A DNA stretch of 64,000 nt from an uncultured Planctomycetaceae bacterium (GTDB lineage: Bacteria; Planctomycetota; Planctomycetia; Isosphaerales; Isosphaeraceae): assembly GCA_963833985.1 (NCBI GenBank), contig CAWIAD010000001.1:2092271-2156270 (forward strand), in the 5' to 3' direction. The stretch's first letter is position 1; every line of letters begins with the position of its first letter. The position numbers and the translations under genes were made by a program. Of this stretch, positions 1,824 to 48,279 are shown one piece after another. The notes beneath the pieces were generated by a model. That model was not told where the DNA came from, did not search any database, and worked only from the letters and a program-made list of their open reading frames with translations.

Positions 1824-3911
1824 ATGTTCTTGCGTTCTGGACATGGTTTTCTTCTTGCCAGTCTCTGCCTCATGAGCATTGTTGCGACGGCCTGTGCGGA
1901 TGAAGGCATGTGGGTCTTCAACAATCTTCCGCTCAACACTCTGAAGGCGCGGTATGGCTTCGAGCCGCCAGCCGGCTGGGCCGAGCACCTGAGGTCGGCC
2001 GCGGTGCGTTTCAACAATGGTGGATCGGGCTCGTTCGTATCGGCGGACGGACTGATCATGACGAACCACCATGTCGGTGCGGACACGCTGGCGAAGCTCG
2101 GGACCAAGGACAAGGACTATTACCGCGACGGGTTCTTCGCCAAGAGTTACGACGAGGAGGCCAAGGCCCCCGACCTGGAGCTGAACGTGCTGGTCGGCAT
2201 CGAGGACGTGACCGGGAAGGTCACCGAGGGCCTGACCTCCGGAATGGACGACGCGGCCGCCGAGAAGGCGCGGCGCGGGGCGATGGCCCGCATCGAGAAG
2301 GAGTCGGCGGAGAAGACGGGGTTGCGCAGCGATGTGGTGACGCTCTACCAGGGCGGGCAGTACCACTTATACACCTACAAGAAATACACCGATGTCCGGC
2401 TCGTCTTCGCGCCCGAGTTCGACGCGGCCTTCTTCGGCGGTGACCCGGACAACTTCGAGTACCCGCGCTACGATCTGGACATCTGCTTCTTCCGTGCCTA
2501 CGAGAACGGCAAGCCCGCCCGCCCTCCGCATCACCTGAAGTGGAGCAAGAACGGCAGCAAGGAGGGCGACCTCGTCTTCGTGGCCGGCCATCCGGGGCGT
2601 ACCGATCGCTTGAACACGCACGCGAGCCTGGAATTCCTGCGAGACGTCTCCTTCCCCGGACTCCTCGATTTCTTGCATACGAAGGAAGCCTTCCTGCTGG
2701 AATACGGCAAACGCGGGGCGGAAGCTTACCGGCAGGCGAAGGAGGACCTGTTCGGCATCCAGAACAGCCGCAAGGCCAGGGTCGGCGGCCTGGGAGGATT
2801 GCGCGACGAGACGTTCATGGAGCGCAAGAAGCAGGCCGAGAAAGAGCTCCGTGCACGGATCGCGGCCGATCCGAAGAAGAAGGAGGCCTACGGAGCGGCG
2901 TGGGAGCGAATCGCGGAGGCCCAGAAGTCGGCCGCCCGGCTGCTCAAGCCGTACAACTTCCTCGAGCGCGGGTTCGCGTTCGATTCAAGGCTCTTCCGGA
3001 TCGCCCGGGTCCTGGTTCGACTTGCCGACGAGAAGACAAAGCCCAACTCCGAGCGGCTCAGAGAGTATCGCGAGTCCGGCATGCCGTCCCTGGAGCTGCA
3101 ACTCTTCTCCGACGCGCCCATCTATCCCGAATACGAGGAGGCCAGCCTCACGCAATCGCTGGAATACTGGAAGAAGCACATGCCGGAGCATCCGCTGGTC
3201 GAAAGCGTGCTCCACGGACGCCCACCGGCGGAGGCCGCGCGCGAACTCGTTCGCCACTCGAAGCTGGCCGACATCGCCCTGCGCAAGAAGCTCGCCGAGG
3301 GAGGCAAGGCCGCGGTCGAGCAGTGCGATGACCCGATGATCAAGCTGGCACTCGCCGTTGATGCGGACGCTCGCGCTGTTCGCAAGGAGCGAGAGGATCT
3401 GATCGAAGGGGTGGAAGCCTCGAACTACGCCCTGATCGCCAAGGCGATCTTCGAGGACCAGGGAGACTCGGTCTATCCCGACGCCACCTTCACGCTCCGC
3501 CTGGCGTTTGGCGTGGTCAAGGGATATGAAGTCGACGGCAAGACGATTCCGGCCTATACGACCATCGCCGGCGCGTTCCAGCACGCCGAAAAGCACGGCA
3601 ACACGGACCCGTACGCGCTGCCGCGCTCCTGGCACGAGGCCAGGAAATCGGGCATGCTGAACCTGGAGACCCCGCTCAATTTCGTTTCCACGGCCGACAT
3701 CATTGGCGGCAACTCCGGCAGCCCGGTCGTGAACCGCGACAACGAGGTGGTCGGCCTGATCTTCGACGGCAACATCCAGTCGCTGGTCCTCGATTTCGGC
3801 TACGACGATCAGGTCGCACGCGCCGTGTCGGTGGACTCGCGCGGCATCCTGGAGGCGATCCGGAACATCTACCACGCCGAGCGGCTGGTCAAGGAGATCG
3901 AGACTCCATAG
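1824..3911 (+). CDS. S46 family dipeptidyl peptidase (DPP7/DAP BII-like)
   Basis: DEGMW N-terminus, TNHHV catalytic His, DIIGGNSGSPV catalytic Ser, FDGN motif. Confidence 0.95.
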   Translation: MFLRSGHGFLLASLCLMSIVATACADEGMWVFNNLPLNTLKARYGFEPPAGWAEHLRSAAVRFNNGGSGSFVSADGLIMTNHHVGADTLAKLGTKDKDYYRDGFFAKSYDEEAKAPDLELNVLVGIEDVTGKVTEGLTSGMDDAAAEKARRGAMARIEKESAEKTGLRSDVVTLYQGGQYHLYTYKKYTDVRLVFAPEFDAAFFGGDPDNFEYPRYDLDICFFRAYENGKPARPPHHLKWSKNGSKEGDLVFVAGHPGRTDRLNTHASLEFLRDVSFPGLLDFLHTKEAFLLEYGKRGAEAYRQAKEDLFGIQNSRKARVGGLGGLRDETFMERKKQAEKELRARIAADPKKKEAYGAAWERIAEAQKSAARLLKPYNFLERGFAFDSRLFRIARVLVRLADEKTKPNSERLREYRESGMPSLELQLFSDAPIYPEYEEASLTQSLEYWKKHMPEHPLVESVLHGRPPAEAARELVRHSKLADIALRKKLAEGGKAAVEQCDDPMIKLALAVDADARAVRKEREDLIEGVEASNYALIAKAIFEDQGDSVYPDATFTLRLAFGVVKGYEVDGKTIPAYTTIAGAFQHAEKHGNTDPYALPRSWHEARKSGMLNLETPLNFVSTADIIGGNSGSPVVNRDNEVVGLIFDGNIQSLVLDFGYDDQVARAVSVDSRGILEAIRNIYHAERLVKEIETP

Positions 3912-3930
3912 AGCGGTTTGCACCTGGACC

Positions 3931-3976
3931 GGAGGGCAGGCATTCTCTGGCAGACAGGAATGTCTGCCCCCCTTCC
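3931..3976. repeat. REP-like palindromic element / possible terminator
   Basis: Perfect stem GGCAGACA-GGAA-TGTCTGCC (3949-3968) nested in a longer imperfect palindrome between convergent genes. Confidence 0.6.
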
Positions 3977-4068
3977 AAGACCCGTAAACTGCCTGCAACC
4001 CTTCAAAAAATGGCTCTGGCAGGTGCTTGTCGCCGGCCCCTTACCACGGAGTGCCATCGCAATACCGT

Positions 4069-4764
4069 TCACGGCCGCGCGTAGCGCCGGCCTTTCACGT
4101 GGATGTCGTCGAACATCCCGGTGTCGTCGAACGAGCCGACACCAATCTGGCCGTGGCGGAACGTGCGATCGTGAGCGGTCATCGCGGGGTGATCCATGTC
4201 GTCGAAATAGACTTCGACAAGCCCGTCCGCGACCTTGCGGACGATGCGCACGTGGTGCCAGCCCTCGGTCCACGGAGTGCCGGCCGTGCGCGACCCGGCA
4301 ATCGAGACGCGCGGGGTGCCGTTGACGATGAAGATGCTGTTGGCATGCTCGTCAGCTTGCTTGCCGAGATGAACATAATAGAAATGGCTGGCATCCTCGC
4401 GGCCGAAGAAGAAGCAGAGGTCGCGGTGGCCATAGTCGCGGGTCGTGGAGCGCACCTTCACGTCGAGCACGAAGTCGGTCACATCAAGATCATTCGCCAG
4501 CGCGATGTTCAGCGGCGAGCGCACCGCGGGCTCGTACTTGCTCTGCCGGAATTGCTCGAGCACGCGGTTTGACCCGGGCTGGACGGTACTGATACGCCAG
4601 GCGGCCGGGTCGGTGAACGTCCATCCGGAGGGCTCGGCGCGCTCGAAGTTGTCTTGAAGCAGCGGTGCAAGCGGCTCATCGGCATTCAAGGATGCGGCCA
4701 GGCCTGCCAGGACGGCAAAGCCGGTGAGGGCCGTCCGCAGCGAGTGTCGAAAACGGTTCGTCAT
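4069..4764 (-). CDS. Secreted beta-sandwich (ConA/LamG-like) hypothetical protein
   Basis: AGGAG RBS before ATG 4764, signal peptide, WHHVRIVR and GQIGVGSFDDTGMFDDI motifs typical of lectin-fold domains. Confidence 0.65.
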   Translation of the reverse strand: MTNRFRHSLRTALTGFAVLAGLAASLNADEPLAPLLQDNFERAEPSGWTFTDPAAWRISTVQPGSNRVLEQFRQSKYEPAVRSPLNIALANDLDVTDFVLDVKVRSTTRDYGHRDLCFFFGREDASHFYYVHLGKQADEHANSIFIVNGTPRVSIAGSRTAGTPWTEGWHHVRIVRKVADGLVEVYFDDMDHPAMTAHDRTFRHGQIGVGSFDDTGMFDDIHVKGRRYARP

Positions 4765-4850
4765 GAGGAGTTCTCCTGTTTCGTGCAAGATAGCAGGTTT
4801 TCCAGGGGATGAAAGCATCGCCCGGGGCCGAACGCGGGTGAGCTGCGTTC

Positions 4851-4879
4851 TTGACAGCCGCGCTGGCGACTCCTATCAT
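4851..4879 (+). promoter_or_regulatory. sigma70 promoter
   Basis: TTGACA-N17-TATCAT, directly upstream of the riboswitch. Confidence 0.8.
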
Positions 4880-4894
4880 TCGGAGCGTCCTAGT

Positions 4895-5094
4895 GGTGCT
4901 GGTGGCCGGTCCGGTAGCCTGCCGGAACCGGCGAACAGGGAATCCGGCGCGAATCCGGAACGGCCCCGCCGCTGTGAGCGAGCGCTAAAGAGCGTCTTCC
5001 CCTCTTGTTGCCATTGTTGGTCCGGCCCGCGAGGGATCGGACCGATGAGAAGGCCAGACACTCCAGCTCGCGAGTCAGAAGACCTACCAGCACC
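4895..5094 (+). ncRNA. Cobalamin (AdoCbl, class I) riboswitch
   Basis: P1 GGTGCTGGT/ACCAGCACC; core AACAGGGAATCCGGCGCGAATCCGGAACGGCCCCGCCGCTGTGA; GCCATTG...AAGGC accessory arm; B12-box GAGTCAGAAGACCT. Confidence 0.93.
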
Positions 5095-5227
5095 CGTACT
5101 CGTATCGCTCTGCGCGGGACGAGCGATGCAGAACCGGTCCCCCCGGAATTCTTCCAGCCTCGGTGGCGCTGTGAATTGCGCCCTCGGGCGAAATTCACGG
5201 GGCGGGCACTGGAAGCCGAGGTTCTGA

Positions 5228-5455
5228 ATGATGGCGCGCTTCTCGACACGGGCGGGCGCTCGGGCGCTCGTGATGACCGCGCTCGTCGCCGGATCCGCCG
5301 CGGTGTGCGGCTGCGGGGCGAGCTCGGCGCCGAGCGATGGCACGCTCTCCGAAACCGCCCAGAAAGCACTCCTGAAGCGCAAGGTTGATGTTCAGGACCG
5401 TCCCGGGCGCAAGCCGCGTCCGCCGGGCTCGGGCTCCAGACTCCAGGGGCATTGA
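5228..5455 (+). CDS. Small putative lipoprotein
   Basis: Basic N-terminus, hydrophobic stretch, lipobox-like AVCGC; sits in front of a DUF1559 gene. Confidence 0.65.
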   Translation: MMARFSTRAGARALVMTALVAGSAAVCGCGASSAPSDGTLSETAQKALLKRKVDVQDRPGRKPRPPGSGSRLQGH

Positions 5456-5485
5456 ATCGCGCCCCGAGAACCAGAAAGGGCCACG

Positions 5486-6667
5486 ATGAGGCTGCATCAA
5501 ACACTCGCTCGACCGCGTCTCATGGACCGGCGCGGCCGGGGTTTCACGCTGATTGAACTGCTGGTCGTGATCGCGATCATCGCCGTGCTGATCTCGCTGC
5601 TCTTGCCGGCGGTGCAGTCGGCGCGCGAGGCCGCGCGGCGGGCGCAGTGCGTCAACAATCTCAAGCAGCTCGGGCTGGCCCTGGCCAACTATGAATCCGG
5701 TCAGGGAAGCTACCCGTACGGCATGGCACGCGAGAACACGGGAGCGAACTCGTTCTCGCCCAACGGCTATTACATCGGCAGCAGCGTCTTCGTCCGGCTG
5801 CTTCCTTACCTCGAGCAGCAGGTCCTGGCCAGTTCCTACAATTACAGCTTGACGAACTGGGTTGCCGACAATTCCACCGTGGGAGCGACCGGCCTGTCGG
5901 TCTTGTGGTGCCCGAGCGACGGGGCTGTCTCCGGGCTGCACTTGCAGTTCCCGGGCTGGGGCTGGGACGGCTCGACGCAGATCCTCACCTACACGAGCTA
6001 CGCCGGATCGATGGGCAACTTCTGCAAGGTGCCGATCCATGTCATATCAACGTCTCAGCATATGTCTGTGCTAGCGCAGGCCGACGGGCTTTTCTTCTAC
6101 CTGGGCTGGCCGGGGATCAGCCCCCCCGTGCAGCCGAACCCGATCGCACCCCAGAATCCCGGCGGGATTCCTCCGGTGCGGCTGGCCTCGGTCACGGATG
6201 GGCTCTCGAACACCCTGGCCTTCGGCGAGAAGGCTCACGGCAAGTTCAGCCAGACCCCGGATGCTTACGGATCAATCGATTATCAGTACAACGGCGCCTG
6301 GGTTTCCGGCAACTTCGGCGACACGCTGTTCACGACGCTCTTCCCGATGAACCCGTTCGGCCGGATCAGCGACGACCCCAACCCCAACGGCGATTTTTTC
6401 TACAGCTACGACAACCAGGAAGACAACTTCTCCATCGCTGCATCGAGCTATCACCCCGGCGGCTGCAACTTCGCGTTCGCGGACGGCTCGGTGCGGTTCC
6501 TCAAGGACAGCATCAACTCCTGGCCGTACGACCCCGCGACCGGCAAGCCGACCAACGTGGGCTATGACCCGACCACCTGCCTGTTCAGCGTGGCTCCGGC
6601 CCCTGGCGTGTACCAGGCGCTCGCCACGCGCTCCAAGGGAGAGATCATCAGCGCCGATCAGTACTGA
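5486..6667 (+). CDS. DUF1559 family protein (prepilin-type N-terminus, H-X9-DG motif)
   Basis: [43 protein letters not shown] and HPGGCNFAFADGSV. Confidence 0.97.
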   Translation: MRLHQTLARPRLMDRRGRGFTLIELLVVIAIIAVLISLLLPAVQSAREAARRAQCVNNLKQLGLALANYESGQGSYPYGMARENTGANSFSPNGYYIGSSVFVRLLPYLEQQVLASSYNYSLTNWVADNSTVGATGLSVLWCPSDGAVSGLHLQFPGWGWDGSTQILTYTSYAGSMGNFCKVPIHVISTSQHMSVLAQADGLFFYLGWPGISPPVQPNPIAPQNPGGIPPVRLASVTDGLSNTLAFGEKAHGKFSQTPDAYGSIDYQYNGAWVSGNFGDTLFTTLFPMNPFGRISDDPNPNGDFFYSYDNQEDNFSIAASSYHPGGCNFAFADGSVRFLKDSINSWPYDPATGKPTNVGYDPTTCLFSVAPAPGVYQALATRSKGEIISADQY

Positions 6668-6703: not shown

Positions 6704-6772
6704 GGAATGTGGGCCAGCCGCCCTCGGCTGGCTCAGGACGGCCGAGGGCGGCTGTCCCACACTTTCCCTCTT
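6704..6772. repeat. Dispersed REP-like palindromic repeat, copy 1
   Basis: GTGGGCCAGCCGCCCTCGGC...GCCGAGGGCGGCTGTCCCAC; 26 nt (6709-6734) are identical in reverse complement to 49409-49434. Confidence 0.8.
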
Positions 6773-6784
6773 CTGGGGAGCTAT

Positions 6785-7918
6785 TTAGACATCGATCACG
6801 TAGATATCGACATCCTTCGTCAGCTTCATGAGCTGATCGAGCAGCGCCCCGCCCAGGAGCCGCCGGTACCAGGGCCGCCGGCTCTTGCCGATGACGATGA
6901 CCTTGATGGCGTATTCCCGGGCGAACGCACACATGGTGCTGGCCACGTTCGGACCACGGAACTGCATGGGCAAGCCGCCAAGCTGCTGGGCGAGTTCCAG
7001 GTTCTTGCTCAGAATGCGCTGGGTTGCCGCATCGATGCGGGTGAGGTCTTCCGAGGGGGTCTGAACGTAGACCGCGTACCAGGGCGCATTGAGCCGGTCG
7101 GCAATCCGTGCGGTCTTGCGCAGCAGCGCCGAGGCGTTCGGGCTGAGGCTCGAGATGCCGACCATGACCCGGTCCGTGGTGGCAATGGGCGCCTGGTCGG
7201 CCTCGGCCCTGCGCGTGCGGCGGTCGATCAGGTGGGCGATCTCGGTGAGCGTGAGCTCGCGCAGCCGCGTGAGGTTGACGGGAGTGAAGAAGTTCTCCAG
7301 CGAGGTGTTGATCCGCTCCTCGGGATAGATCTTGCCTGTCCTGAGCCGCTCGATCAGGTCCTCGACCGAAACATCGACGTTGACGATCTGGTCGGCGTCG
7401 GCCAGGACGCGATCCGGAAATCGCTCCTTGACCTTCACGCCGGTGGTGCGTTCGATCTCGTCGTAAAGGCTCTCGAAGTGCTGGATATTCACGGTGGTGA
7501 TGACATGGATCCCGGCGATGAGCAGGTCTTCCACGTCCTGGTACCGCTTGGAGTGCTTGCTGCCGGGAACGTTGGTGTGCGCCAACTCGTCCACGAGGCA
7601 GACGGTGGGCCTGCGCGCCACGATCGCCTCCAGATCCATTTCCCTGAGTTGAACGCCGCGGTATTCGATGACGCGCGGGGGGACGATTTCCAGGTCAGCA
7701 AGCTGCTCCTGGGTCTCCGCGCGGCCGTGGGTTTCCACGATGCCGATGACCACGTCAACGCCCTGCTTCTTCAGCCGCTGGCCTTCGCGGAGCATGGCGT
7801 AGGTCTTGCCGACACCGGCCGCCGAGCCGAGATAGACCTTGAGTCGTCCCCGGGCCTGGCGGCGGATCAGGGTGAGGAACTGCTCGGGGGTTGGCCGGGG
7901 TGGTTCGGCAACGCTCAT
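6785..7918 (-). CDS. kdpD: Sensor-only KdpD (KdpD N-terminal domain plus Usp domain; no TM or kinase domains)
   Basis: RGRLKVYLGSAAGVGKT, VDELAHTN, TTVNIQHFESL, followed by a Usp domain; ends at about 377 aa. Confidence 0.9.
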   Translation of the reverse strand: MSVAEPPRPTPEQFLTLIRRQARGRLKVYLGSAAGVGKTYAMLREGQRLKKQGVDVVIGIVETHGRAETQEQLADLEIVPPRVIEYRGVQLREMDLEAIVARRPTVCLVDELAHTNVPGSKHSKRYQDVEDLLIAGIHVITTVNIQHFESLYDEIERTTGVKVKERFPDRVLADADQIVNVDVSVEDLIERLRTGKIYPEERINTSLENFFTPVNLTRLRELTLTEIAHLIDRRTRRAEADQAPIATTDRVMVGISSLSPNASALLRKTARIADRLNAPWYAVYVQTPSEDLTRIDAATQRILSKNLELAQQLGGLPMQFRGPNVASTMCAFAREYAIKVIVIGKSRRPWYRRLLGGALLDQLMKLTKDVDIYVIDV

Positions 7919-7934
7919 GGCCGTACTCCACGCC

Positions 7935-8500
7935 TCATTCCGCGGCCTGAAGCTCATCCAGGGCCAGGTTCAGCTTCAGCACGTTGATGCGCGGCGGTGC
8001 GCCGATGATCGCCGCAGAGTGATCGGTGTGGCGAGTGATCAGCGCCGGACCCGTTCATCGGGAAGATGGCGGGCGGCCGCGACGCGTCCTGCCTGGTAGA
8101 AGGCGGCCTCCGGGCTGATCTCGGGGTCGAGGCCGGAGCCCGAGGCCGTCACCAGGTCAACCGGAATGGGGTTTTCCGGGGTGGCCTTGAGCGCCTCCGC
8201 CCGCTCGACGACCTTCTTCCGGAGGTCGGGGTTCCTGGTGCCGAGGTTCGAGCCTCCAGCGGCGTCCGCCTTGTAGTCGACGGCCGAGGGGCGGGGGTGG
8301 AAATAACGGTCCGAGGCGAACGGCTGCGCGATCAGCTCCGAGCCGATCACGGTGCGATCGCCCCTGAGGATCAGGCTCCCCTCCGCCTGGTGCGGGAAGG
8401 CAAGCTGGGCCAGCCCCCACACCACCGTGGGATAGGCCACGGAACAGAGGATGAAGGAAACGAGGCAAGCCAGCAGGGCTGTGATGGACTCGCGGATCAT
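7935..8500 (-). CDS. kdpC: K+-transporting ATPase subunit C; apparent 1-bp frameshift near 8045
   Basis: GSELIAQPF, YFHPRPSA, DLVTASGSGLDPEIS; the RINVLKLNLALD tail is in the next frame. Confidence 0.93.
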
Positions 8501-17185: not shown

Positions 17186-19057
17186 TCATGAACTGGTGCA
17201 GGAGTGGTCCGCGGCGATGGGAGCCGCCCTGTCGGCCGCGCTCTGGCGGCCTCGTTTCTGCTCGGCGAAGAAGTTTTCGAGGTTCGACCGCGCCGTGCGG
17301 TCCTCGGGGCAAAGCTTGAGTGCCTTGACCAGGTGCGAGCGAGCCTCGTATGTCTTCCCCTGGAGGGCCAGGATCACACCCAGGTCGCGATGCGCCTCGG
17401 CGAGGTAGGGGTCCAGCTCCAGCGCCCGCCGCAACGGATCCTCGGCCAGGTCCGGGTGGTGCAGCAGCAGCAGCAAGCTGGCCAGGTGATGATGCATCTT
17501 GGGCAAATCGGGCGCGAAGTCCACGCCCCGGCGCATGGTACGGATGGCCTCGATATCATTCCCCTGCCGGGCCAATGCCTCGGCCAGGTAGAGATGCGCC
17601 TTGGCCGAACGCGGCGCGATCCGCACCGCCGCCTGGTACTGCACCATGGCGTCGTCGTCGAAACCCACCTGGGTCAATGCCAGCGCGAGATTGCCGTGTG
17701 CCTCGAGGGAACGGTCGGACCCGACCTGCAAGGCATGGTCCCAGAGCGCCACCGAATGACGCCAGGTCGCGCACTGGTACCAGCTCAGGCAGCAAAGGAC
17801 CAGGGCTGCCGTGACCGCAAGGCCGGCCGAGGCAATCCGGATGGCCGGCCGACATCCCAGGAGCCGCACCAGCAAGAAGGCCAGTACGGGCACCCAGGGA
17901 AGGCTTGCGGCATAGCTGTAGCGGTCGGCCGCGAGCTGCGGGCTGTAGCGAACGAGCCCCGAGTTGGGTGCCAGGATGATGAGGTAGGCCACCCATGCTG
18001 CCGCGAAGGCCGGCCACCGTCTGCGCTCTCGCCAGGCGAGCAGGCTGACAGCGAGCACGCCGGCCGCGCACGCCGCGAAGCCTGGCTGCGTGAGCCGCAC
18101 CCACCTGTCCTCCTCACGGGGATAGACGATTGTCAGGCCGATGGGAAGCATCGTCTTGGCGGGATAGAACCAGAGCCCGTAGGCCGCGTCGGCGAGCCGT
18201 GCGGAGAGCGGAGCCGCCACCGGCTCTCCGCTGTCGAACTGCGGGTAGTTCTTCGCCCGGTAGGCCAGGTACATCATCACCAGGCTGAAGATGAGGAGGG
18301 GCAGCTTCTCCGCCAGGATGGTCGCCCACCGCCAGCAAGCGCAAATGCGTGTCCCGTCCTGCCGAAACCGGCCCAGCGGGTGGGCATCCAGGACCAGGAG
18401 CAGCAGCGGGTAAGTCACGGCCACGGCCTTGAAGAGCATCGCGGCCGCTCCAAGCAGGTAGCCGCCGGCCAGGTAGATTCTCCGGGTCGACCAGGGAATC
18501 TCCCCATCAAAGGCTTTCACGTATGCGGCGATTCCCAGCAGCATGCATAGCACGCTGGGCAGATAGGGCTGAGCCGAAAGCCAGACCACCGCCTCGGTAC
18601 GGAGCGGGTGAACGCCGTACAGGAGCGTGGCCAGACCCACGCCAAGCAATTCCGCTCGCGAGTTCCGGCCGGGCCGGCCGCGCCGGGCGCGATCGAGCAA
18701 GATCCAGGCGGCCGCGAACAGTGCCACGCAGGTCATGGCGTGCAAGCCAAGACTCACCGCGTGATAGCCGCCAGGGTGTAGACTCCAGAGCGCGAACTCC
18801 AGGAAGATGAGGACCCAGGACAGGGGCTGGTAAACACCCAGCCAGCAGGTTGTCCAGGCCCAGGCCAGCTTCTTACAAACCGCATAGTTAAGCGCCTGGT
18901 TGCCGACGAAGTTCCGGTTATCGTCCATGTTCACGAAATCACAGCCGATCGCCGGCAGGAAGGCGATGACCGCCGCAACCGCGATCCAGAAGCCAATGCG
19001 CAATCCCAGACGACGACTGGAGCTCTCCTGATCCTCTTCCCCGCTCACCCGATTCAT
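17186..19057 (-). CDS. TMTC-like multi-TM protein with C-terminal TPRs (putative GT-C glycosyltransferase)
   Basis: FVNMDD, YQPL, HPLRTEAVVW, FKAVAV, EKLP, ADRYSY, W..SVALWDHAL, then TPR repeats. Confidence 0.85.
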   Translation of the reverse strand: MNRVSGEEDQESSSRRLGLRIGFWIAVAAVIAFLPAIGCDFVNMDDNRNFVGNQALNYAVCKKLAWAWTTCWLGVYQPLSWVLIFLEFALWSLHPGGYHAVSLGLHAMTCVALFAAAWILLDRARRGRPGRNSRAELLGVGLATLLYGVHPLRTEAVVWLSAQPYLPSVLCMLLGIAAYVKAFDGEIPWSTRRIYLAGGYLLGAAAMLFKAVAVTYPLLLLVLDAHPLGRFRQDGTRICACWRWATILAEKLPLLIFSLVMMYLAYRAKNYPQFDSGEPVAAPLSARLADAAYGLWFYPAKTMLPIGLTIVYPREEDRWVRLTQPGFAACAAGVLAVSLLAWRERRRWPAFAAAWVAYLIILAPNSGLVRYSPQLAADRYSYAASLPWVPVLAFLLVRLLGCRPAIRIASAGLAVTAALVLCCLSWYQCATWRHSVALWDHALQVGSDRSLEAHGNLALALTQVGFDDDAMVQYQAAVRIAPRSAKAHLYLAEALARQGNDIEAIRTMRRGVDFAPDLPKMHHHLASLLLLLHHPDLAEDPLRRALELDPYLAEAHRDLGVILALQGKTYEARSHLVKALKLCPEDRTARSNLENFFAEQKRGRQSAADRAAPIAADHSCTSS

Positions 19058-19338: not shown

Positions 19339-20016
19339 ATGATCTCCGGTTCCCGGTGTATGCACTGCCAGCACGAACTGGCTCCCCCGGATGCACTGCG
19401 CCGCGGGCCACTCCGTTGCCCTGGCTGCGGCCGCGTGGTGGCCGACGAGGCTGCTTGCGAATCCGACCGGACAGCGCCCGTGGACAGGGTCGAATTGAGT
19501 CCGCCGGCCGCCGTCACGGCGATTTATGATCTTGTCATCCCTGACACGGAGTTGCCCGGGGCAATGGCCCTGGACTCAGCCTTGCCGCTTCGCTGCACGG
19601 CTGCTGCGGTCACGGGCCAGGCGAGGGCAGCCGAGGAGCGTACGCTGCTCGAGATCGTCAAGGATAGCGCCCTGGGAGCAAGTCAGCTGCAAGGACTCAG
19701 CCTCTGTCTGGTGGCGCTGAGCATTGCGGATATCCTGATGACGTTCGCGCTGCTGCGCAATGACGAGAGCTATTACGAGTCGAACCCGGTCGCAGGCTGG
19801 TTCTTCGCCCGCTGGAACATGGCTGGCCTGGTCGCGTTCAAGTTCTCGGCGATCGCCGGCGCCATCGCGCTGGGCGAGCTCATCGAGCGGCGCCGTGGTG
19901 GGCTCGGTAAGCTGGTGCTCGCGGTCGGCTGCGCGGCCGCGGCTGCCGTCGTCTGGCACAGCCTGCGTCTGTATCTGGGGACCTCCGGACTGCCGATCGT
20001 CGGAGACATCGGTTGA
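19339..20016 (+). CDS. DUF5658-like membrane protein with N-terminal Zn-ribbon
   Basis: CMHC...CPGC, then DILMTFALL...[10 protein letters not shown]...LVAFK. Confidence 0.7.
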
Positions 20017-20047
20017 TGCGGAGAGGGCGACCGGTTCCCGTGAATTC

Positions 20048-21059
20048 TCAGAACGCGTCCGCCGAGAGGATCTCGCCACCATCTCGTGTGGACAGGCTGC
20101 GCCAGGATGCCAGGCTGACGGAATCGCGCACGAAGCCGACATGGCCGTCGCAATAAAGCACGTTGACCCCGCCGGGATGGAAGCTGCGCCGGCCTTCCAG
20201 CCCGGGTTGTGATAAGTCACGCAGTCGTCCCGGATGGAATTCGGTCCCAGGTAATGATTGTAGAGAGTGTTCAAATAATTGCCGTCCCACCAGCTCGAGC
20301 CCTTGAAGAGCATCCACCCGCGGCCGGCGGCGGAGCAGGCGTCGTCCGTGAGCGGAGCCGACCAGACACGCGCGAAGGCCCGCACGCGCGGGCTCGGCGC
20401 CGGGGATGGCGAGGTCTGCGTGTAGGTTCCGGGAATTCCCAGCGGCTGCTCGGACGCGGCTGCGGTGCCGCTGGCGCCGTCGCGGATCGTCGCCAGCGAT
20501 TGCGACGGTCCGAGGATGAACGCCCCGTTGGCAAGAGTGGCGTCTCCTCCGTTGGAGCCGTCGCCGGCGCAGAAGGCGTAGTTCGTTGGCCCTGAGGTCG
20601 GATCGGGCGGAACCCCGCCATCGCTGGGGCACAGAAAGAGCGCGACGCTGGTCCCCATGGCCGTGGCATTGGCCGGGTAGTACGGCCAGAAGGCCGAGCT
20701 GGAACCGGATGCCGGCTGGTGGGCGATCGGAAAGTTGAAATTGAGGGCGCCATAAAGCACGGTCTGCTCGAGGAAGGGCGCCATCTGGGCCAGCGCCGAC
20801 CAGCGATACTGCTGCGGTGACGAGTCGGGCAGAACGTTGTTCTTCGTGGGATAGAGGAATCCCACGGGGAAGCAGTTGAGGGCCGAGTGGTAATTGTGCA
20901 GCGCGATGCCGAGCTGTTTCAGGTTGCTCAGGCACTGGGTGCGCCGGGCGGCCTCGCGCGCGGCCTGCACTGCTGGCAGGAGCAGCGCGATCAGCACCGC
21001 GATGATGGCGATCACGACCAGCAGTTCGATGAGGGTGAACCCCGGTTGCGGCCGGGCAT
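20048..21059 (-). CDS. DUF1559 family protein; apparent frameshifts near 20189 and probably 21043
   Basis: [33 protein letters not shown]; the C-terminal [17 protein letters not shown] is in another frame; start position is inferred. Confidence 0.9.
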
Positions 21060-21112
21060 GCAGCCGGAGACGCGCACGCGACGTTCCAGCGTCCCTCGCA
21101 TCATCCGGCCAG

Positions 21113-23024
21113 TCAGTCGTTGGGTCTGGGCCCACGCTTCAGATCCTCCGGAATCCGATCCGCGTTCGTCGCAGTCACGCCGCTCGGGGTCGGGGCGGCA
21201 AGGCCGTACACATCGACCCGCCCGTCATAGGTCGCCACCAGGACCTTTCCGTCCGCGACGCTCGGAGGGCAGAATTTGCTGAGGTTGAACGTGTTCCCCG
21301 GTATGTGCGTGCTGTCCCAGAGTAACTTGAGTCGGGGGGTGCCGTCGAGGTTCTTCACGGGGTCAAGCCGCGTTGCATCGTAGGCGCGGAGGATTCCTTC
21401 CACCACGTAGCGGTTGGCATCACCACGAATCGGGGCGGTCGCCCAGACAATCGCCGTGTTCGGCTTCGATCCGTTGGCCGAGATCACCGGGAACCCCCCT
21501 GGCATGCCTCCCTTGCCGCCGAACCCCGCGGACGCGACCTCCGCGCTCCTGGCCAGGAAGGTCGCGGCACCGCTGGTGCCGATGGACCAGGCTCGAAGGC
21601 TCTCGTTCTCCCCCCAGGCGAACAGGGTCGGCCCCTGGGCCGGGATGTTGCAGAACGCGGGCGAGCCATGCAGGTGGTGCGTCTTGCCGTCATAGAGATG
21701 ATCAAGGTTGCCAACCTGCGACGCGTCGATGCCGAACCCCGGAAAATACGTGAAGAAGATCGGCGGTGCCTTGAGCCGCGTGAAGTCCGCTCCCTGGCCG
21801 AAGGCGGCCGTGTCCCTGGGCAGAACGTAGAGCACGCCGTCCTTGCCCGCCCCGATCACGAGGTCCAGGCCGGGCAGTGGGACCGGTCCCGCCGAGCCCA
21901 GGTCGTAGTCCTGGAAGTTGTCGTCCCCCTTGCGGTTTCGCACGGTATCGCGAAAGGGCGTGAACCAGGCGACCGCTTCCAGCTTCCCCTGGGCGGCCGG
22001 CCCCGGCGGGGGCGTGTACCGGAGCTTCACGAAACTGTCCGGCAAATCGCCGGCCGCCGGCGGCTGGGTGTTGCCGGCCTCGTCCTCGACCCCGTAATTG
22101 CCGGTCATCACGTAGAGATCGCCGTTCTCGTCGGCCGCCGGCCCCTGGGCGGCCTGCCAGATTCCCGCGCCCGTCCCGTGTGGCGTGGTCGTCCAGGCGG
22201 CCGTCTGGCGGAAGGATCCGGCGTCAAAGGCAATGACCCAGCCATGCGTCGGGTCGTGCTCCTCGTGGGTCATGGCGAAGGCCACGAAGATGGTTTTCGT
22301 CGCCACGCCGGCGCTGCTGGGCCGGCTTGTCAAGAGCAGGCCGGAGCGCTGCTTCTGCCGCGAGGGAACGAACCGGGCGGTGGGGACGCCCTGGTCCGTG
22401 GCCGCGGCCTGGATCACGACCGGCGGATGGGCATCGCTGCCATTGGCCAGGTTCAATGCGTGCAACTGAAAGATCGCGCTGGCCACGCTGCCGTCGCTGC
22501 TGGTCCAGCTCACCACGTACATCGTTCTGGCATCCAGGTCGATGACCGGCGTACTGAGGATTCCCCAGAGCTTGTTCACGCCCCAGAGGTCGATTTCCGT
22601 CGAACCCGGAAACCCGCCCATCGGGGTGGGCTTCGGCTTGACGGGGCGGCCCAGCGAGCGCGGGCTGGACCAGATGGCCTGCCCCGCCCTGACGTCGAAC
22701 GCCCATACGTTGTCGGCCATGGTGCACACGAAGACCACGTCGTGCACTTTGCCGTCGTTCATGGTCAGCCCCGGGACATAGAGCGGCTGCGCCTCGATCC
22801 GGGGGTCATCGGTCACCTGCAAGCTGAGCAGCTTGACCATCAGGTTGCTGCCCACCTTCTCCGGCGTGAGAGCGATCTCCCGCTGGTTCGCGCTGGTGCG
22901 CGCTGTTGCCGGAGCGCGTCAGCCAGGGCGTCTGCGCGGGAAGTGACGCGGCCGCGGCCAGGAGAATGAGCGGAAGCCCCAGGACGGCATAAGCCTGCGT
23001 CGAGCCGCGATGGTTCCCGATCAT
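21113..23024 (-). CDS. Secreted PQQ-like beta-propeller protein; apparent frameshift near 22900
   Basis: Signal peptide plus [54 protein letters not shown]. Confidence 0.75.
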
Positions 23025-31385: not shown

Positions 31386-34300
31386 ATGGTTCGCTACATC
31401 ATCACGTGGAGTCTGCACAACCGGCTGATCGTCCTGCTCGGCGTGACCGGGCTGATCATCCTGGGTCTGAACTCGGCCTGGAACCTGGATGTCGAGGCCT
31501 ATCCCGACCCCACACCGCCGCTCGTGGAGGTGATCACCCAGAACCCTGGCGCCAGCCCTGAGGAAATGGAGCGGCTGATCGGCATTCCGATCGAGACCGT
31601 GCTCAACGGCATGCGCGGGCTCAAGTACATGCGAAGCACGTCGCTGGCAGGGCTCAACGACATCAAGTGCGTCTTCGAATACGGGGCGGATTACTGGGCC
31701 GTCCGCCAGGAGGTGATCAACCGCCTCGGCTTCGTGAGCAACCTGCCGCAGGGCGTGACTCCGGGTCTTTCTCCCTGGAGCCCCACCGGAGAGATTGTCC
31801 GCTACGTCCTGGAAGGACCGAAGTACACGCTGAACCAGATCAAGGCGGTGCAGGACTGGGTGCTCACCCGTCAGCTCAAGCAAGTGCCTGGCGTGATTGA
31901 CGTCACCGGTTTCGGCGGCACGGTGAAGGAATACCAGGTGCTGCTGGACACCCGGCTGATGCAGCAGTACGGCGTGACCCTCGACCAGGTGGAAAAGGCG
32001 ATACAGGGGGCCAACGCCAATGTCGGAGGCAACATCCTGACGCTCGGCAGCCAGGCCCACAATGTGCGGGCGCTCGGCCTCATTGGCGAGGGCATTGACA
32101 GCCTTGATCCGGCCAATGCCTCCCAGTCCACCCGGCTTGAGGGAATCAAGGTCCATGACATCAACCGGGTGGTCATCAATACCCAGGCCGACGGCACCCC
32201 GATCTTTGTGCGGCATATCGCCAAGGCCATCGTCGGGCATCACCCCCGGCTCGGCCTGGTCGGCCGGGCGACCATCAATCAGAGCAAGGGCGGTAGCGCC
32301 AGCGATGAGGACGACGTCGTCGAAGGCATCGTCCTCATGCGGAAATATGAGAAATCCAGGCCGACGGCCGACATGGTGCTCCAGAAGCTGAAGGACATTG
32401 AACGCGAGAAGCTGCTGCCCGAGGGCATGAAGGTCACGCTCTTCAACAACCGCACCGACCTCATCGAGGTCACCACGCACAACGTGCTGCACAACTTGCT
32501 TTTCGGCATGGGTCTGGTGATCGCCGTGCTGTTCGTCTTCCTGGGAAACCTGACCAGCGCCGGGGTCGTGGCGCTGATGATTCCGCTGGCGCTCTTCTTT
32601 TCGGTGAGCGTCCTCTACGCCCGGGGCGAATCGGCCAACCTGCTGTCCATCGGCGCCGTTGACTTCGGCATCATCGTCGATAGTTCGGTCATCATCGTCG
32701 AGAACATCTACCGGCACATCGCCACCCCGAGCGCTGACCGCAGCCGGAGCTGGATCGACCGCATCGCCGATGCGTCCCATGAGATCGAGCGGCGCTCTTC
32801 TTCTCCACCACCATCATCGTCTGCGCGTTTATTCCACTCTTTTCCATGACGGGGCCTGAAGGGGCCCTCTTCGGCCCCATGGCCAAGACGTATGCGTTTG
32901 CGCTCTGTGGCGCGCTCTGCCTGGCGGTGACGCTGGCGCCTGTGCTTTGCTCGTACCTGTTCCACGACGGCCTGCGCGAGAAGGACACCATCGTGGATCG
33001 GCTGATGAAGCTGCGTTACCTGCGGAACCTGAACCGGGTCCTGCGCTTCCGCTACCTCACCCTGAGCTTCATGTTCGCGCTCATCATCGTGACGGTCGTG
33101 CTGATTCCGCATCTCGGCGGCGAGTTCATGCCCCCGCTCGAGGAGGGGAACCTGTGGATCCGCGCGGTGATGCCGCGGACCACGTCGCTGGAGCAGGCCG
33201 CGAAGCTTGCACCCCGGCTGCGCGACGTGATCACCACGATTCCCGAGGTGCGGGGCGTGATGTCGCAGATTGGCCGGCCCGACGACGGCACCGACGTCAC
33301 GGGCTTCTTCAACATCGAGTTCAACGTGCCGCTCAAGCCGATGGAGCAATGGCGGAAGGATCGCTGGGGAAGGCCCATCTCCCGCGAGCAAATCCAGGAC
33401 GAGCTGGCGAAGCGTTTCGACGAGTTTCCTGGCCTGAACTTCAACTTCTCGCAGTACATCCGCGATAACGTGGAGGAGGCGCTCTCGGGCGTCAAGGGCG
33501 CGAACTCGGTGAAGCTCTTCGGCAACGACCTGGCGCAGCTCGAGGAGATCGGCAAGCAGGTGCTCCAGGTGCTCAGAACCGTTCCGGGAGTGGAAAACGC
33601 GGGGCTCTTCCACATCGTCGGCCAGCCCAACCTGGAGATCAAGATCGACCGCGACGCCTGCGCCCGCTACGGCGTGAACATCGCGGACGTCGAGGACGCT
33701 GTGCAGGTAGCCATCGGCGGCAAGGCCTTCTCGCAGATGGTCGAGGGAGAGAAGCTCTTCGACATCGTCCTGCGGCTCCCGCTGGAGGCGCGCGACGATC
33801 CGGGCGTGATCAGCCGGCTGCCGGTCAGCGTTCCCGGCAGCGGCCCCGACCAGCCGAGCTTCCGCATTCCGCTCTCACAGCTCGCCCAGATCACGCCGCA
33901 CAAGCCGGGCGCCTCGTACATTTATCGCGAGAACAACCGCCGCTACATCCCCATCAAGTTCAGCGTCCGGGGCCGCGACCTGGCCTCCACCATCGCCGAG
34001 GCCAAGCGGAAGGTGGACGACCCGATCAACGGCGTCAAGCGGCCGTCCGGTTACAACATCGAGTGGTCCGGCGAGTTCGCCCAGATGGAGCAGGCCAACA
34101 GCCGGCTGCTCTGGATCGTTCCGCTGTCAGTGGGCCTCATCCTCATCTTGCTCTACAGCGCCTTCAACAACTTCAAGGACGCCATGCTGGTGATGGTCAA
34201 CGTCATCGAGGCCTCGATGGGGGGCGTCTGGGCGCTCTGGCTCACCGGTACGCCGTTCTCGATCTCGGCGGCGGTGGGTTTCGTATCAATCTTCGGTGTC

Positions 34301-34675
34301 GCCGTCCAGGACGGCGTTCTGTTGATCTCTTACTTCAATCAGATGCGGGCCGCCGGCCGCGGGGTGCGCGAGTCGATCCTCCGCGGAGCCGAGTTGCGCG
34401 TGCGGCCGGTGGTCATGACCTCATTGACCGCGGCCCTCGGCCTCTTTCCCGCGGCCATCGCCACATCGATCGGCTCGCAGGCGCAGAAGCCGCTGGCGAT
34501 CGTCGTGGTCGGCGGCATGCTCGTGACGCTCTTCCTGACGCGCTACCTCATGCCGGTCCTGTACAGCTTCTTCCCCGGTCCGCGCGGGCACTCCGGGCAA
34601 GGAGACCTCGTCGAGGGATCTCACTACGCGGACCAGTTCCTGGCCATGCCCTCTCGGCTGGACCGGAAAGATTGA
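31386..34675 (+). CDS. czcA: CzcA/CusA heavy-metal RND permease; apparent frameshift near 32791
   Basis: AYPD, SIGAVDFGIIVDSSVIIVEN, GEFMPPLEEG, FGVAVQDG, RPVVMT...PLAIVVVGG. Confidence 0.9.
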
Positions 34676-44174: not shown

Positions 44175-45516
44175 TTGGACGGCGATGAGCGGGACATCCC
44201 CGAGGGCTGGACCCTGACACCGGCGGACCTGACGCTCGTCATGGCCAAGGGCCAACCTGACCGCTCTGAAGGCCGAGGTCACCGCGACCTGGCCCATGAC
44301 CAGCCTGCTCGACATGGTTAAGGAAGCCGACCTGCGTCTGCACTTCACCGAGGCCCTGAAGAGCCCGACCGCCTACGAGGCCCTGGATCGGTCCGTCCTG
44401 CGACCACGGCTCTTGCTCTGCCTACACGGGATCGGGACCAACGCCGGCTTGCAGCGCATGGCCGGGCAGGAGTCCGGGGTGACCTACAAGGACCTCGCCT
44501 ACGTGCGGCGGCGCTATCTCAGCGTCGACGCGCTGCGGCGGGCGATCGCCGTCGTGACCAACGGCACGTTGCACGCCCGCAACCCGGCTGTCTGGGGCGA
44601 GGGGACGGCGGCCTGCGCGTCCGACTCCAAGCACTTCGGCGCCTGGGACCAGAACCTCACGACGCAGTGGCACGTCCGCTACGGCGGCCGCGGCATCATG
44701 ATCTACTGGCACGTCGAGCGGAAATCGCTGTGCATCCACTCCCAGCTCAGGTCGCCCTCCTCGTCCGAGGTCGCGTCCATGATTGAGGGCGTCGTGCACC
44801 ACTGCACCGAGATGGAGGTCGACCGCCAGTACGTCGATTCCCACGGCCAGAGCACGGTGGCGTTCGCGTTCTGCCGGCTGCTCGGCTTCCAGCTCCTGCC
44901 ACGGCTCAAGGCGATCCACAAGCAGAAGCTGTCCCGGCCGGACGTCGGCCAAGTCGACGCCTACCCGAACCTCCGGGCGGTGCTGACGAAGCCGATCAAC
45001 TGGGAGCTGATCCGCCAGCAGTACGACCAGATGGTCAACTACGCGACCGCGGTCCGCCTAGGCACGGCCGAGACCGAGGCGATCCTGCGGCGGTTCACGC
45101 GCAACAACGTGCAGCATCCGACGTACAGAGCGTTCGCGGAACTTGGCAAGGGCGTCAAGACGATCTTCCTGTGCCGCTACCTTCATGGCGAGGGGCTTCG
45201 CCGCGAGATCTACGAAGGGCTGAACGTCATCGAGCAATGGAACGGCGCCAACGACTTCGTGTTCTTCGCCCGCCGCGGCGAACTGGCCAGCAACCGCCGT
45301 GAGGACCACGAGGTCAGTATGCTGGCGTTGCACCTGCTCCAGAACTGCATGATCTACGTCAACACGCTCATGCTACAGCAGGTGCTGGCGCAACCGCACT
45401 GGAAGCAGAAGCTCGAACTCCGCGACCTGAGCGCGCTTACGCCACTGATCTGGGAGCACGTGAACCCGTACGGCCGCTTCGAGCTTGATATGAACTCACG
45501 GATATTACTTAAGTGA
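44175..45516 (+). pseudogene. tnpA: Internally deleted Tn3-family transposase
   Basis: About 25 N-terminal codons ([14 protein letters not shown]) joined out of frame to the C-terminal ~420 aa holding the DDE residues (CASDS, VDSHG, IEQWN); full-length Tn3 TnpA is about 1000 aa. Confidence 0.88.
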
Positions 45517-48204: not shown

Positions 48205-48279
48205 TCGGGCCGAGGAGATTTGAACTCCTGACCTCTTGCACCCCAAGCAAGCGCGCTAGCCAAGCTGCGCTACGGCCCG
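48205..48279 (-). tRNA. tRNA-Pro(GGG)
   Basis: Cloverleaf with CGGGCCG/CGGCCCG acceptor stem, CTTGC-TTGGGGT-GCAAG anticodon arm and TTCAAAT T-loop; CCA not encoded. Confidence 0.96.

Follow-up and report, generated by a model that had tools for sequence, protein, structure and literature searches.

A conserved cobalamin riboswitch precedes a lipoprotein and DUF1559 gene pair in Isosphaeraceae, a candidate module for corrinoid acquisition

A stretch of 64,000 nucleotides from contig CAWIAD010000001.1 of an uncultured Planctomycetaceae bacterium (family Isosphaeraceae), referred to here as the window, carries a cobalamin riboswitch followed by genes for a small lipoprotein and a pilin-like protein of the DUF1559 family (Table 1). 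This aptamer was the only riboswitch found by Rfam scanning of the whole 64 kb; it begins four bases after a sigma-70-type promoter and matched RF00174 over the full model (positions 1–189) at 86.1 bits (E 8e-20; gathering score, 31.5 bits). Promoter-like sites with such a match were expected 0.2 times in shuffled sequence, the -35 and -10 boxes were kept in 8 of 9 aligned orthologous leaders, and transcription from this promoter would start right at the 5' end of the aptamer. The lipoprotein and DUF1559 open reading frames (ORFs) are separated by 30 nt. Beyond them lie a GC-rich hairpin (0 of 200 shuffled sequences folded equally well), the sequence ACUUUCCCUCUUCU, and convergent kdpD-like, kdpC, kdpB, and kdpA genes; from its predicted structure, the hairpin is likely a bidirectional terminator closing the operon. 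The initial annotation of this DNA, made from the sequence alone, had described the promoter, an intact B12 riboswitch, and a downstream region limited to these two genes, and each of these points held. As it had also stated, no btuB, btuF, or B12-independent isozyme gene was found downstream of the pair, and a scan of 33 further ORFs in the window likewise yielded no B12 gene.

Table 1. Features of the riboswitch-controlled locus, with positions given in the window
Feature	Position	Strand	Basis or remark
Sigma-70-type promoter, TTGACA-17 nt-TATCAT	4851–4879	+	Consensus scan, 11 of 12 matches
Cobalamin riboswitch aptamer (RF00174) with P6 extension and B12 box AGUCAGAAGACCUACC	4883–5105	+	Rfam model
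P13 hairpin, loop UGCGCGGGAC	5102–5129	+	In minimum-free-energy and centroid folds
Variable leader	5130–5227	+	Contains window-specific 33-codon upstream ORF
Small lipoprotein, 75-aa precursor, about 49 aa mature	5228–5455	+	Signal peptide and lipobox V-C-G↓C-G
Pilin-like DUF1559/H-X9-DG protein, 393 aa	5486–6667	+	Pfam and NCBIfam matches
GC-rich 22-bp hairpin between convergent genes	6708–6761	.	Centroid structure, z = -4.45

Orthologs of the DUF1559 protein with 67 to 84% identity occur in Isosphaeraceae genomes and in soil and peat metagenomes, and their loci were examined with 10 kb of flanking DNA on each side. At 67% identity or more to the DUF1559 protein of the window, 13 of 14 assembled loci had the riboswitch. 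All seven loci from species-representative genomes (71 to 79% identity) carried RF00174 on the same strand, about 450 to 850 nt upstream, and orthologous aptamers scored 69 to 87 bits with the Rfam covariance model. A riboswitch was also present in one distinct locus represented by L084/L085 (69% identity; 84 bits) and in four further loci, L086 to L089 (74 to 83% identity), at nhmmer E < 1e-54 with a profile made from the first nine riboswitch loci. The same was true of metagenome contigs that hold the full gene and at least 650 nt of upstream sequence (8 of 8). Among paralogs, no match was obtained at 22 loci (39 to 46% identity) with the covariance model or at approximately 50 further loci with nhmmer, and a second DUF1559 gene in the window (19576–21135, minus strand) is also without a riboswitch.

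Promoter, aptamer, P13 hairpin with its loop (L13), lipoprotein gene, and DUF1559 gene were conserved together in 13 of 14 assembled loci. The flanking genes vary by locus, with an S46 peptidase, Kdp proteins, cytochrome oxidase, PFOR, and glycoside hydrolases among their products; it is therefore the lipoprotein and DUF1559 genes to which the riboswitch belongs. With the same riboswitch ahead of the orthologous pair at over 20 further loci, the association lies well outside what chance would produce. Promoter, aptamer, leader, lipoprotein gene, and DUF1559 gene form a conserved, self-contained cassette with a two-gene operon, and the regulatory link between riboswitch and pair is real. The link is apparently unreported so far: a literature search found no relevant connection of DUF1559, pseudopilins, or Planctomycetota to cobalamin or B12 riboswitches, and a 2025 review of Planctomycetota mentions none of B12, cobalamin, DUF1559, or pilin.

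Two metagenome contigs have a different layout. In L093 (689–2031) and L104 (2–1136), deletions of roughly 600 nt leave the riboswitch fused to a DUF1559 gene that has neither the lipoprotein nor the N-terminal pilin helix; these fusions are either pseudogenes or assembly artefacts.

The aptamer itself is an ordinary member of RF00174, and the novelty lies in the genes under its control. Its core and B12-box segments, GAGUCAGAAGACCUACC, GGGAAUCC...AAUCCGGAACGG, and GCCAUUGU, were invariant across 9 to 13 loci. The only conserved element 3' of the aptamer is the P13 hairpin, whose loop in the window, UGCGCGGGAC, is complementary to aptamer loop L5 (CCCCG, approximately 4964–4968). Its four loop-proximal pairs were kept in 13/13, 11/13, 13/13, and 13/13 loci, and the variants seen (CG/UA/UG, CG/UA, and GC/CG) are compensatory; covariation was counted after anchoring the loci on the loop, as the MAFFT alignment had a one-column register shift between subgroups. 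Across loci, L13 reads GCGCGGGAC or GCGAGGGAC: it is UGCGCGGGAC or UCGCGGGAA where L5 is GCCCCG and GCGAGGGAC where L5 is GUCCCG. Since L5 and L13 change together between the two subgroups, at least four contiguous pairs stay possible. On the basis of this complementarity, P13 is expected to be the L5-L13 kissing-loop element of the expression platform.

The arrangement invites comparison with classical kissing-loop cobalamin riboswitches, such as those of E. coli btuB, env8, and Thermoanaerobacter. As in these, a full RF00174 aptamer with a B12 box is followed, right 3' of P1, by a hairpin with a loop complementary to L5. In classical translational switches, however, P13 holds the ribosome-binding site beside the start codon, whereas in the orthologous leaders the lipoprotein start lies 122 to 387 nt further downstream of P13, and no conserved Shine-Dalgarno sequence was found. 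A consensus scan of the leader also found no intrinsic terminator. The initial annotation had proposed that CCTCGG pairs with a CCGAGG segment containing the ribosome-binding site. The two hexamers (5158–5163 and 5216–5221) are indeed complementary, but the predicted pairing probability is 0.002, the fold forced to contain the helix lies 4.3 kcal/mol above the minimum free energy, and the pairing is not conserved; a helix sequestering the ribosome-binding site in this way was accordingly rejected as the main mechanism. In the predicted fold the ribosome-binding region of the window is mostly paired, with partners other than CCTCGG.

The leader of the window also contains an upstream ORF (5126–5227) of 33 codons. 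Its ATG at 5126 lies 6 nt past an SD-like GGGAC of the P13 loop, and its TGA directly abuts the lipoprotein ATG (TGAATG), in the same frame. Regulation by a leader peptide was considered and rejected: at the corresponding position L002 to L005 have GTG, TTG, or CTG, no start codon is present in L001, L006, and L007, and lengths and frames differ among loci.

In the great majority of cases, cobalamin riboswitches govern the transport of B12 or cobalt, the synthesis of B12, or isozymes that do without B12, and riboswitch regulons are normally tied closely to the metabolism of their ligand. Seen against this background, a sigma-70-type promoter would here drive a class-I-like cobalamin riboswitch placed ahead of a two-gene envelope operon. 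By analogy with the way this riboswitch family works, the element would behave as an OFF switch: when coenzyme B12 is sufficient, L5 of the ligand-bound aptamer would dock on the P13 loop and downstream expression would cease. Beyond P13, the signal could be carried by a block of translation, by Rho-type or premature termination in the long leader, by translation in the leader region, or by another route. When B12 is scarce, the small lipoprotein and the prepilin-type DUF1559 protein would be made.

The lipoprotein gave no match in Pfam or NCBIfam. Its N-terminus in the window, read from the sequence, is ...LVAGSAAVCG↓CG, and a lipobox x-x-G-C-(G/D) stands at the aligned position in all lipoprotein orthologs; the form x-x-G-C-G was seen in all riboswitch-bearing loci examined, in Aquisphaera giovannonii, and in the sister-clade locus L080. 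The protein further has a helix motif, (I/L)PEAARKSLLQKKVDV, and ends in a basic region rich in Pro, Ser, Arg, and Lys; motif and basic tail, like the lipobox, are kept at all riboswitch-bearing loci. The 75-aa ORF is thus a true conserved gene.

The 393-aa partner matched N_methyl models (PF07963, 34.4 bits; TIGR02532, 29.6 bits), DUF1559/SBP_bac_10 (PF07596, 168.8 bits; cutoff, 23.3), and H-X9-DG (TIGR04294, 46.1 bits; cutoff, 19). A prepilin cleavage site, RG↓FTLIE, occupies residues 18 to 24, the residues H323...D333-G334 are invariant in 148 sequences, and an alternative start, M13 at 5522, gives the 381-aa form found in databases. With GspG, PulG, and type IV pilins the protein shares a class III signal peptide (G↓FTLIE), Glu+5, a long hydrophobic N-terminal helix, and partial matches to the GspG, ComGC, and PilA models and to pilin structures. 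It differs from them in that all pseudopilin equivalog scores fall far under their cutoffs; the GspG model (TIGR01710), for example, gave 40.3 bits, against a cutoff of 88.85, and covered residues 18 to 78 only. It further differs in having an approximately 320-aa H-X9-DG globular domain with no match in the PDB, in the position of its gene in the window outside any type II secretion system (T2SS) or type IV pilus cluster, and in being one of dozens of paralogs per genome.

Structure prediction, which the initial annotation had suggested, gave a confident AlphaFold model (predicted local distance difference test [pLDDT], 86.4; predicted template modeling score, 0.84), although its only fold match in the PDB was the pilin helix. 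The model was built from 148 sequences including paralogs; 47 close orthologs alone gave a pLDDT of 46, which was unusable. It comprises a 52-residue N-terminal helix (residues 22 to 73) followed by the globular domain. Foldseek found no match in the PDB at E <= 0.001, its weak matches being type IV pilins over the N-terminal helix only, and a PDB sequence search similarly returned pilin helices only and left the globular domain without a match. The pilin-like character of the protein thus appears, in the model, to be limited to the N-terminus. Relative to paralogs, the riboswitch-bearing clade has insertions at residues 204 to 225 (Pro-rich), 260 to 263, and 300 to 306 and its own conserved aromatic residues, and these are candidates for specificity-site residues.

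Genes directly downstream of the pair in two genomes connect the cassette with B12 metabolism. In L003, bluB starts 7 to 22 nt after the DUF1559 stop codon (TIGR02476, 274 bits; cutoff, 150) and is followed on the same strand by cobQ (633 bits), a cobO fragment, cobT (351 bits), and cobS; the sole riboswitch of this locus stands before the lipoprotein-DUF1559 pair. In L001, and likewise in metagenome contig L097, which is nearly identical, the gene that overlaps the stop codon of the DUF1559 gene belongs to Peripla_BP_2. Peripla_BP_2 is the family of BtuF, heme-binding, and siderophore-binding proteins; the best PDB sequence match of the encoded protein is 'Vitamin B12-binding protein' 5ysc (E 3.5e-9), and its score with the BtuF equivalog is weak (39 bits). 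Riboswitch control, together with a bluB-cobQOTS or BtuF-like gene downstream in two genomes, places the pair in the B12 regulon in the sense of regulatory membership only.

These neighbours bear on what the pair might handle. Cobalamin riboswitches also control cobalt transporters and B12-independent bypasses, and a module importing some non-corrinoid in demand at low B12 can be envisaged: cobalt, a lower-ligand base (5,6-dimethylbenzimidazole [DMB], another benzimidazole, or a phenolic), methionine, or some other product of B12-dependent reactions. The position of bluB, encoding DMB synthase, directly behind the pair in L003 makes a lower-ligand connection conceivable, and the DUF1559 domain has no recognized B12-binding fold. 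The L003 neighbours are, however, late-pathway, nucleotide-loop, and salvage genes rather than cobalt-chelation or early-pathway genes, and the family of the L001 neighbour handles large tetrapyrrole-like ligands, not ions or amino acids. For these reasons corrinoid salvage fits better than cobalt uptake, and we regard a non-corrinoid substrate as unlikely. The corrinoid-or-cobalt scavenging role put forward in the initial annotation is partly supported by the conserved cassette and by the bluB/cob and BtuF-like neighbours, but it is narrowed, as cobalt suits L003 less well, and no B12-binder fold was matched.

Alternatively, the pair may have no part in transport and may instead provide an envelope or fibre protein, such as an adhesin or pseudopilus subunit, that is tuned to B12 status, for instance for attachment to B12-producing partners or for remodeling of the surface during starvation. 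The pilin-like build of the DUF1559 protein with its complete class III signal peptide, a family with no assigned function, and the response of DUF1559 paralogs of Rhodopirellula to general stresses would all suit such a role. It is nevertheless distinctly unlikely in our estimate, given the usual tie between riboswitch regulons and the metabolism of their ligand and the two genomes in which the operon is joined to bluB/cob genes or to a BtuF-like gene.

The explanation we favor, at about even chances, is a B12-repressed envelope module for corrinoid acquisition. In this model, the DUF1559 protein would be processed at its prepilin site, its N-terminal helix holding it in the inner membrane or in a pseudopilus-like fibre, and the pair would acquire exogenous corrinoids (cobalamin, cobinamide, and related cobamides). 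The DUF1559 globular domain would most likely be the capture subunit, with the lipoprotein as its envelope partner; corrinoid binding by these proteins is what we infer from their regulation and neighbours. If correct, this would be a route of B12 acquisition unrelated to BtuB, BtuG, and BtuF. The regulatory link itself already gives a ligand-level clue for a DUF1559 member, the first in this family, and it points to vitamin B12 or related corrinoids. Should the corrinoid role fail, the locus would still offer a clean cobalamin riboswitch with a kissing-loop hairpin 120 to 390 nt from the regulated start codon.

Several observations weigh against this explanation. The DUF1559 domain has no likeness in sequence or fold to BtuF, BtuG, BtuH, BtuB, or other solved B12 binders, and neither cassette protein matched Pfam or NCBIfam models for BtuB, BtuF/Peripla_BP_2, BtuCD, BtuG, BtuH, or BtuJ/DUF4465. 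B12 genes adjoin the pair in only 2 of about 20 genomic contexts, and the other approximately 19 show none. The pairing of a lipoprotein with a DUF1559 protein is common among paralogs, so this architecture is uninformative with regard to B12. A search of sequencing runs found no transcriptome sequencing run with the locus; the one run found, with 5% of sampled words, was of soil-metagenome DNA. Finally, orthologs occur in relatives that lack the riboswitch, which the initial annotation had held to count against its proposal. The locus of A. giovannonii OJF2 (CP042997.1) is without a cobalamin riboswitch even at E <= 1, and a sister clade (L080 to L083; 58 to 62% identity) has the upstream lipoprotein and no riboswitch; B12 regulation is thus not essential to the module.

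The tree nevertheless gives the first of these absences another meaning. The A. giovannonii protein is 81% identical to that of the window, and its locus is syntenic, with the lipoprotein and DUF1559 genes retained. In a neighbour-joining tree it falls inside the riboswitch-bearing clade, beside L003, L087, and the window, and this nesting indicates secondary loss of the riboswitch. The lipoprotein ATG lies approximately 15 nt past the stop codon of the S46 peptidase gene, and the pair is apparently co-transcribed with that gene. The absences thus show that B12 control was gained once at the base of a clade and lost at least once, and they are no sign that the link is spurious. A. giovannonii thereby offers a natural comparison strain without the riboswitch. 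In the extracted locus (L090; CP042997.1, 3473097–3490332, reversed), promoter, riboswitch, and leader are cleanly lost at 7700–8001.

These riboswitch-less relatives could also be taken as signs of a historical accident, in which the riboswitch once belonged to a cob/bluB operon, as in the L003 state, and the pair was inserted behind it, leaving a link with no B12 function. The arrangement in L003, the clean loss in A. giovannonii with the pair kept, and the sister clade without a riboswitch would all agree with this account. On the other hand, approximately 19 loci with no cob gene keep the promoter, a 69- to 87-bit aptamer, and a compensatory P13 before the pair alone. Such maintenance of stand-alone cassettes argues for selection on B12 regulation, and we consider an accidental link very improbable.

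Corrinoid acquisition by envelope proteins of this kind has precedents in regulation, if not in sequence. In Bacteroides, it was their place in loci under riboswitch control that led to the recognition of BtuG, BtuH, and BtuJ as proteins that bind B12. They resemble the present pair as envelope proteins with no E. coli counterpart in cobalamin-riboswitch loci, and here too one partner is a lipoprotein. In contrast to those systems, the present pair shows no sequence or fold similarity to them and has no adjacent TonB-dependent BtuB, its large protein is of prepilin type, its lipoprotein has only about 49 mature residues, and B12 capture is proposed from context.

DUF1559 proteins form the largest paralog family in planctomycete genomes, Planctopirus limnophila having 68 members, of which two are essential, and Rhodopirellula baltica 74. 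The literature assigns the family no function or ligand, and it was once labelled a solute-binding family. Other Planctomycetota paralogs (PF07596, 'SBP_bac_10') have a domain architecture equal to that of the window protein and often a small lipoprotein upstream: in about 20 of 70 paralog loci (within L009 to L045; DUF1559 match at about 6001), the ORF directly upstream is small, has a lipobox, and ends in a basic tail of low complexity. This frequency suggests that lipoprotein plus DUF1559 protein is a general two-part module, of which the present clade is the copy under B12 control. The paralogs differ in that none of about 70 loci has a riboswitch and in that the insertions and conserved aromatic residues are specific to this clade.

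Precedents for such expansions bear on how the whole family may work. Planctomycete pili-like fibres have been found to bind dextran. For a verrucomicrobium, a PulG-like pseudopilin with 67 paralogs is described, one of them in an alginate-utilisation cluster. Growth on alginate raised the expression of most genes of this cluster and also that of one pseudopilin, for which the passage gives no locus tag that would tie it to the cluster member. The likeness to DUF1559 lies in a massively expanded pilin-like family with a member in a substrate cluster. The system differs in phylum and substrate and is not regulated by a riboswitch, and its authors read secretion rather than uptake. As a broader and doubtful extension of the corrinoid model, DUF1559/H-X9-DG proteins might recognize the substrate for an import apparatus of Planctomycetota built from pilins or pseudopilins (dextran-binding fibres at crateriform structures), each paralog and lipoprotein serving one substrate, with the present clade specific for cobamides and replacing capture of the BtuB/BtuG type. 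If this were true, the riboswitch would supply a ligand assignment, the first in the phylum's largest paralogous family, and a handle on the uptake machine. Already the corrinoid model, should it hold, would support the view that members of the expanded pilin-like families in Planctomycetota and Verrucomicrobiota serve uptake, each for a specific substrate.

Other genes near the cassette in relatives were also noted. A family designated F1 lies directly downstream of the pair in L006, L007, and L001 and was considered as a third operon gene. It resembles a GNAT-type acetyltransferase by eye, with no Pfam or NCBIfam match, and is probably unrelated because it is cytoplasmic and its likely start lies 84 nt past the DUF1559 stop. 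In L086, a T2SS-F gene and several N_methyl (pseudopilin-like) genes (1997–5056) stand 5 to 8 kb upstream of the cassette; they could be assembly machinery for such proteins or a coincidence.

Further features were observed elsewhere in the window. The kdpD homolog (6785–7957, minus strand) encodes 390 aa with sensor and Usp domains only, and the L092 counterpart scores below cutoff with the 'KdpD-like non-kinase potassium sensor' model. In some relatives (the P0093 locus and L092) kdp block and cassette lie in synteny, whereas A. giovannonii lacks this block. The second DUF1559/N_methyl paralog, of 519 aa, overlaps by 23 nt a 580-aa ORF (21113–22855) with no Pfam match, and a TPR protein gene (17186–19057) lies near it. 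An AcrB/RND transporter is present as two ORFs on the plus strand (31386–32849 and 32846–34675) that overlap by 4 nt and cover positions 2–431 and 452–1020 of Pfam ACR_tran; the gene is either truly in two parts or carries a frameshift or is a pseudogene. A Tn3-family DDE transposase gene (44296–45516, plus strand; 446 bits) lies approximately 2.7 kb from a tRNA gene (48205–48279, minus strand), and the two may mark the insertion of a mobile element.

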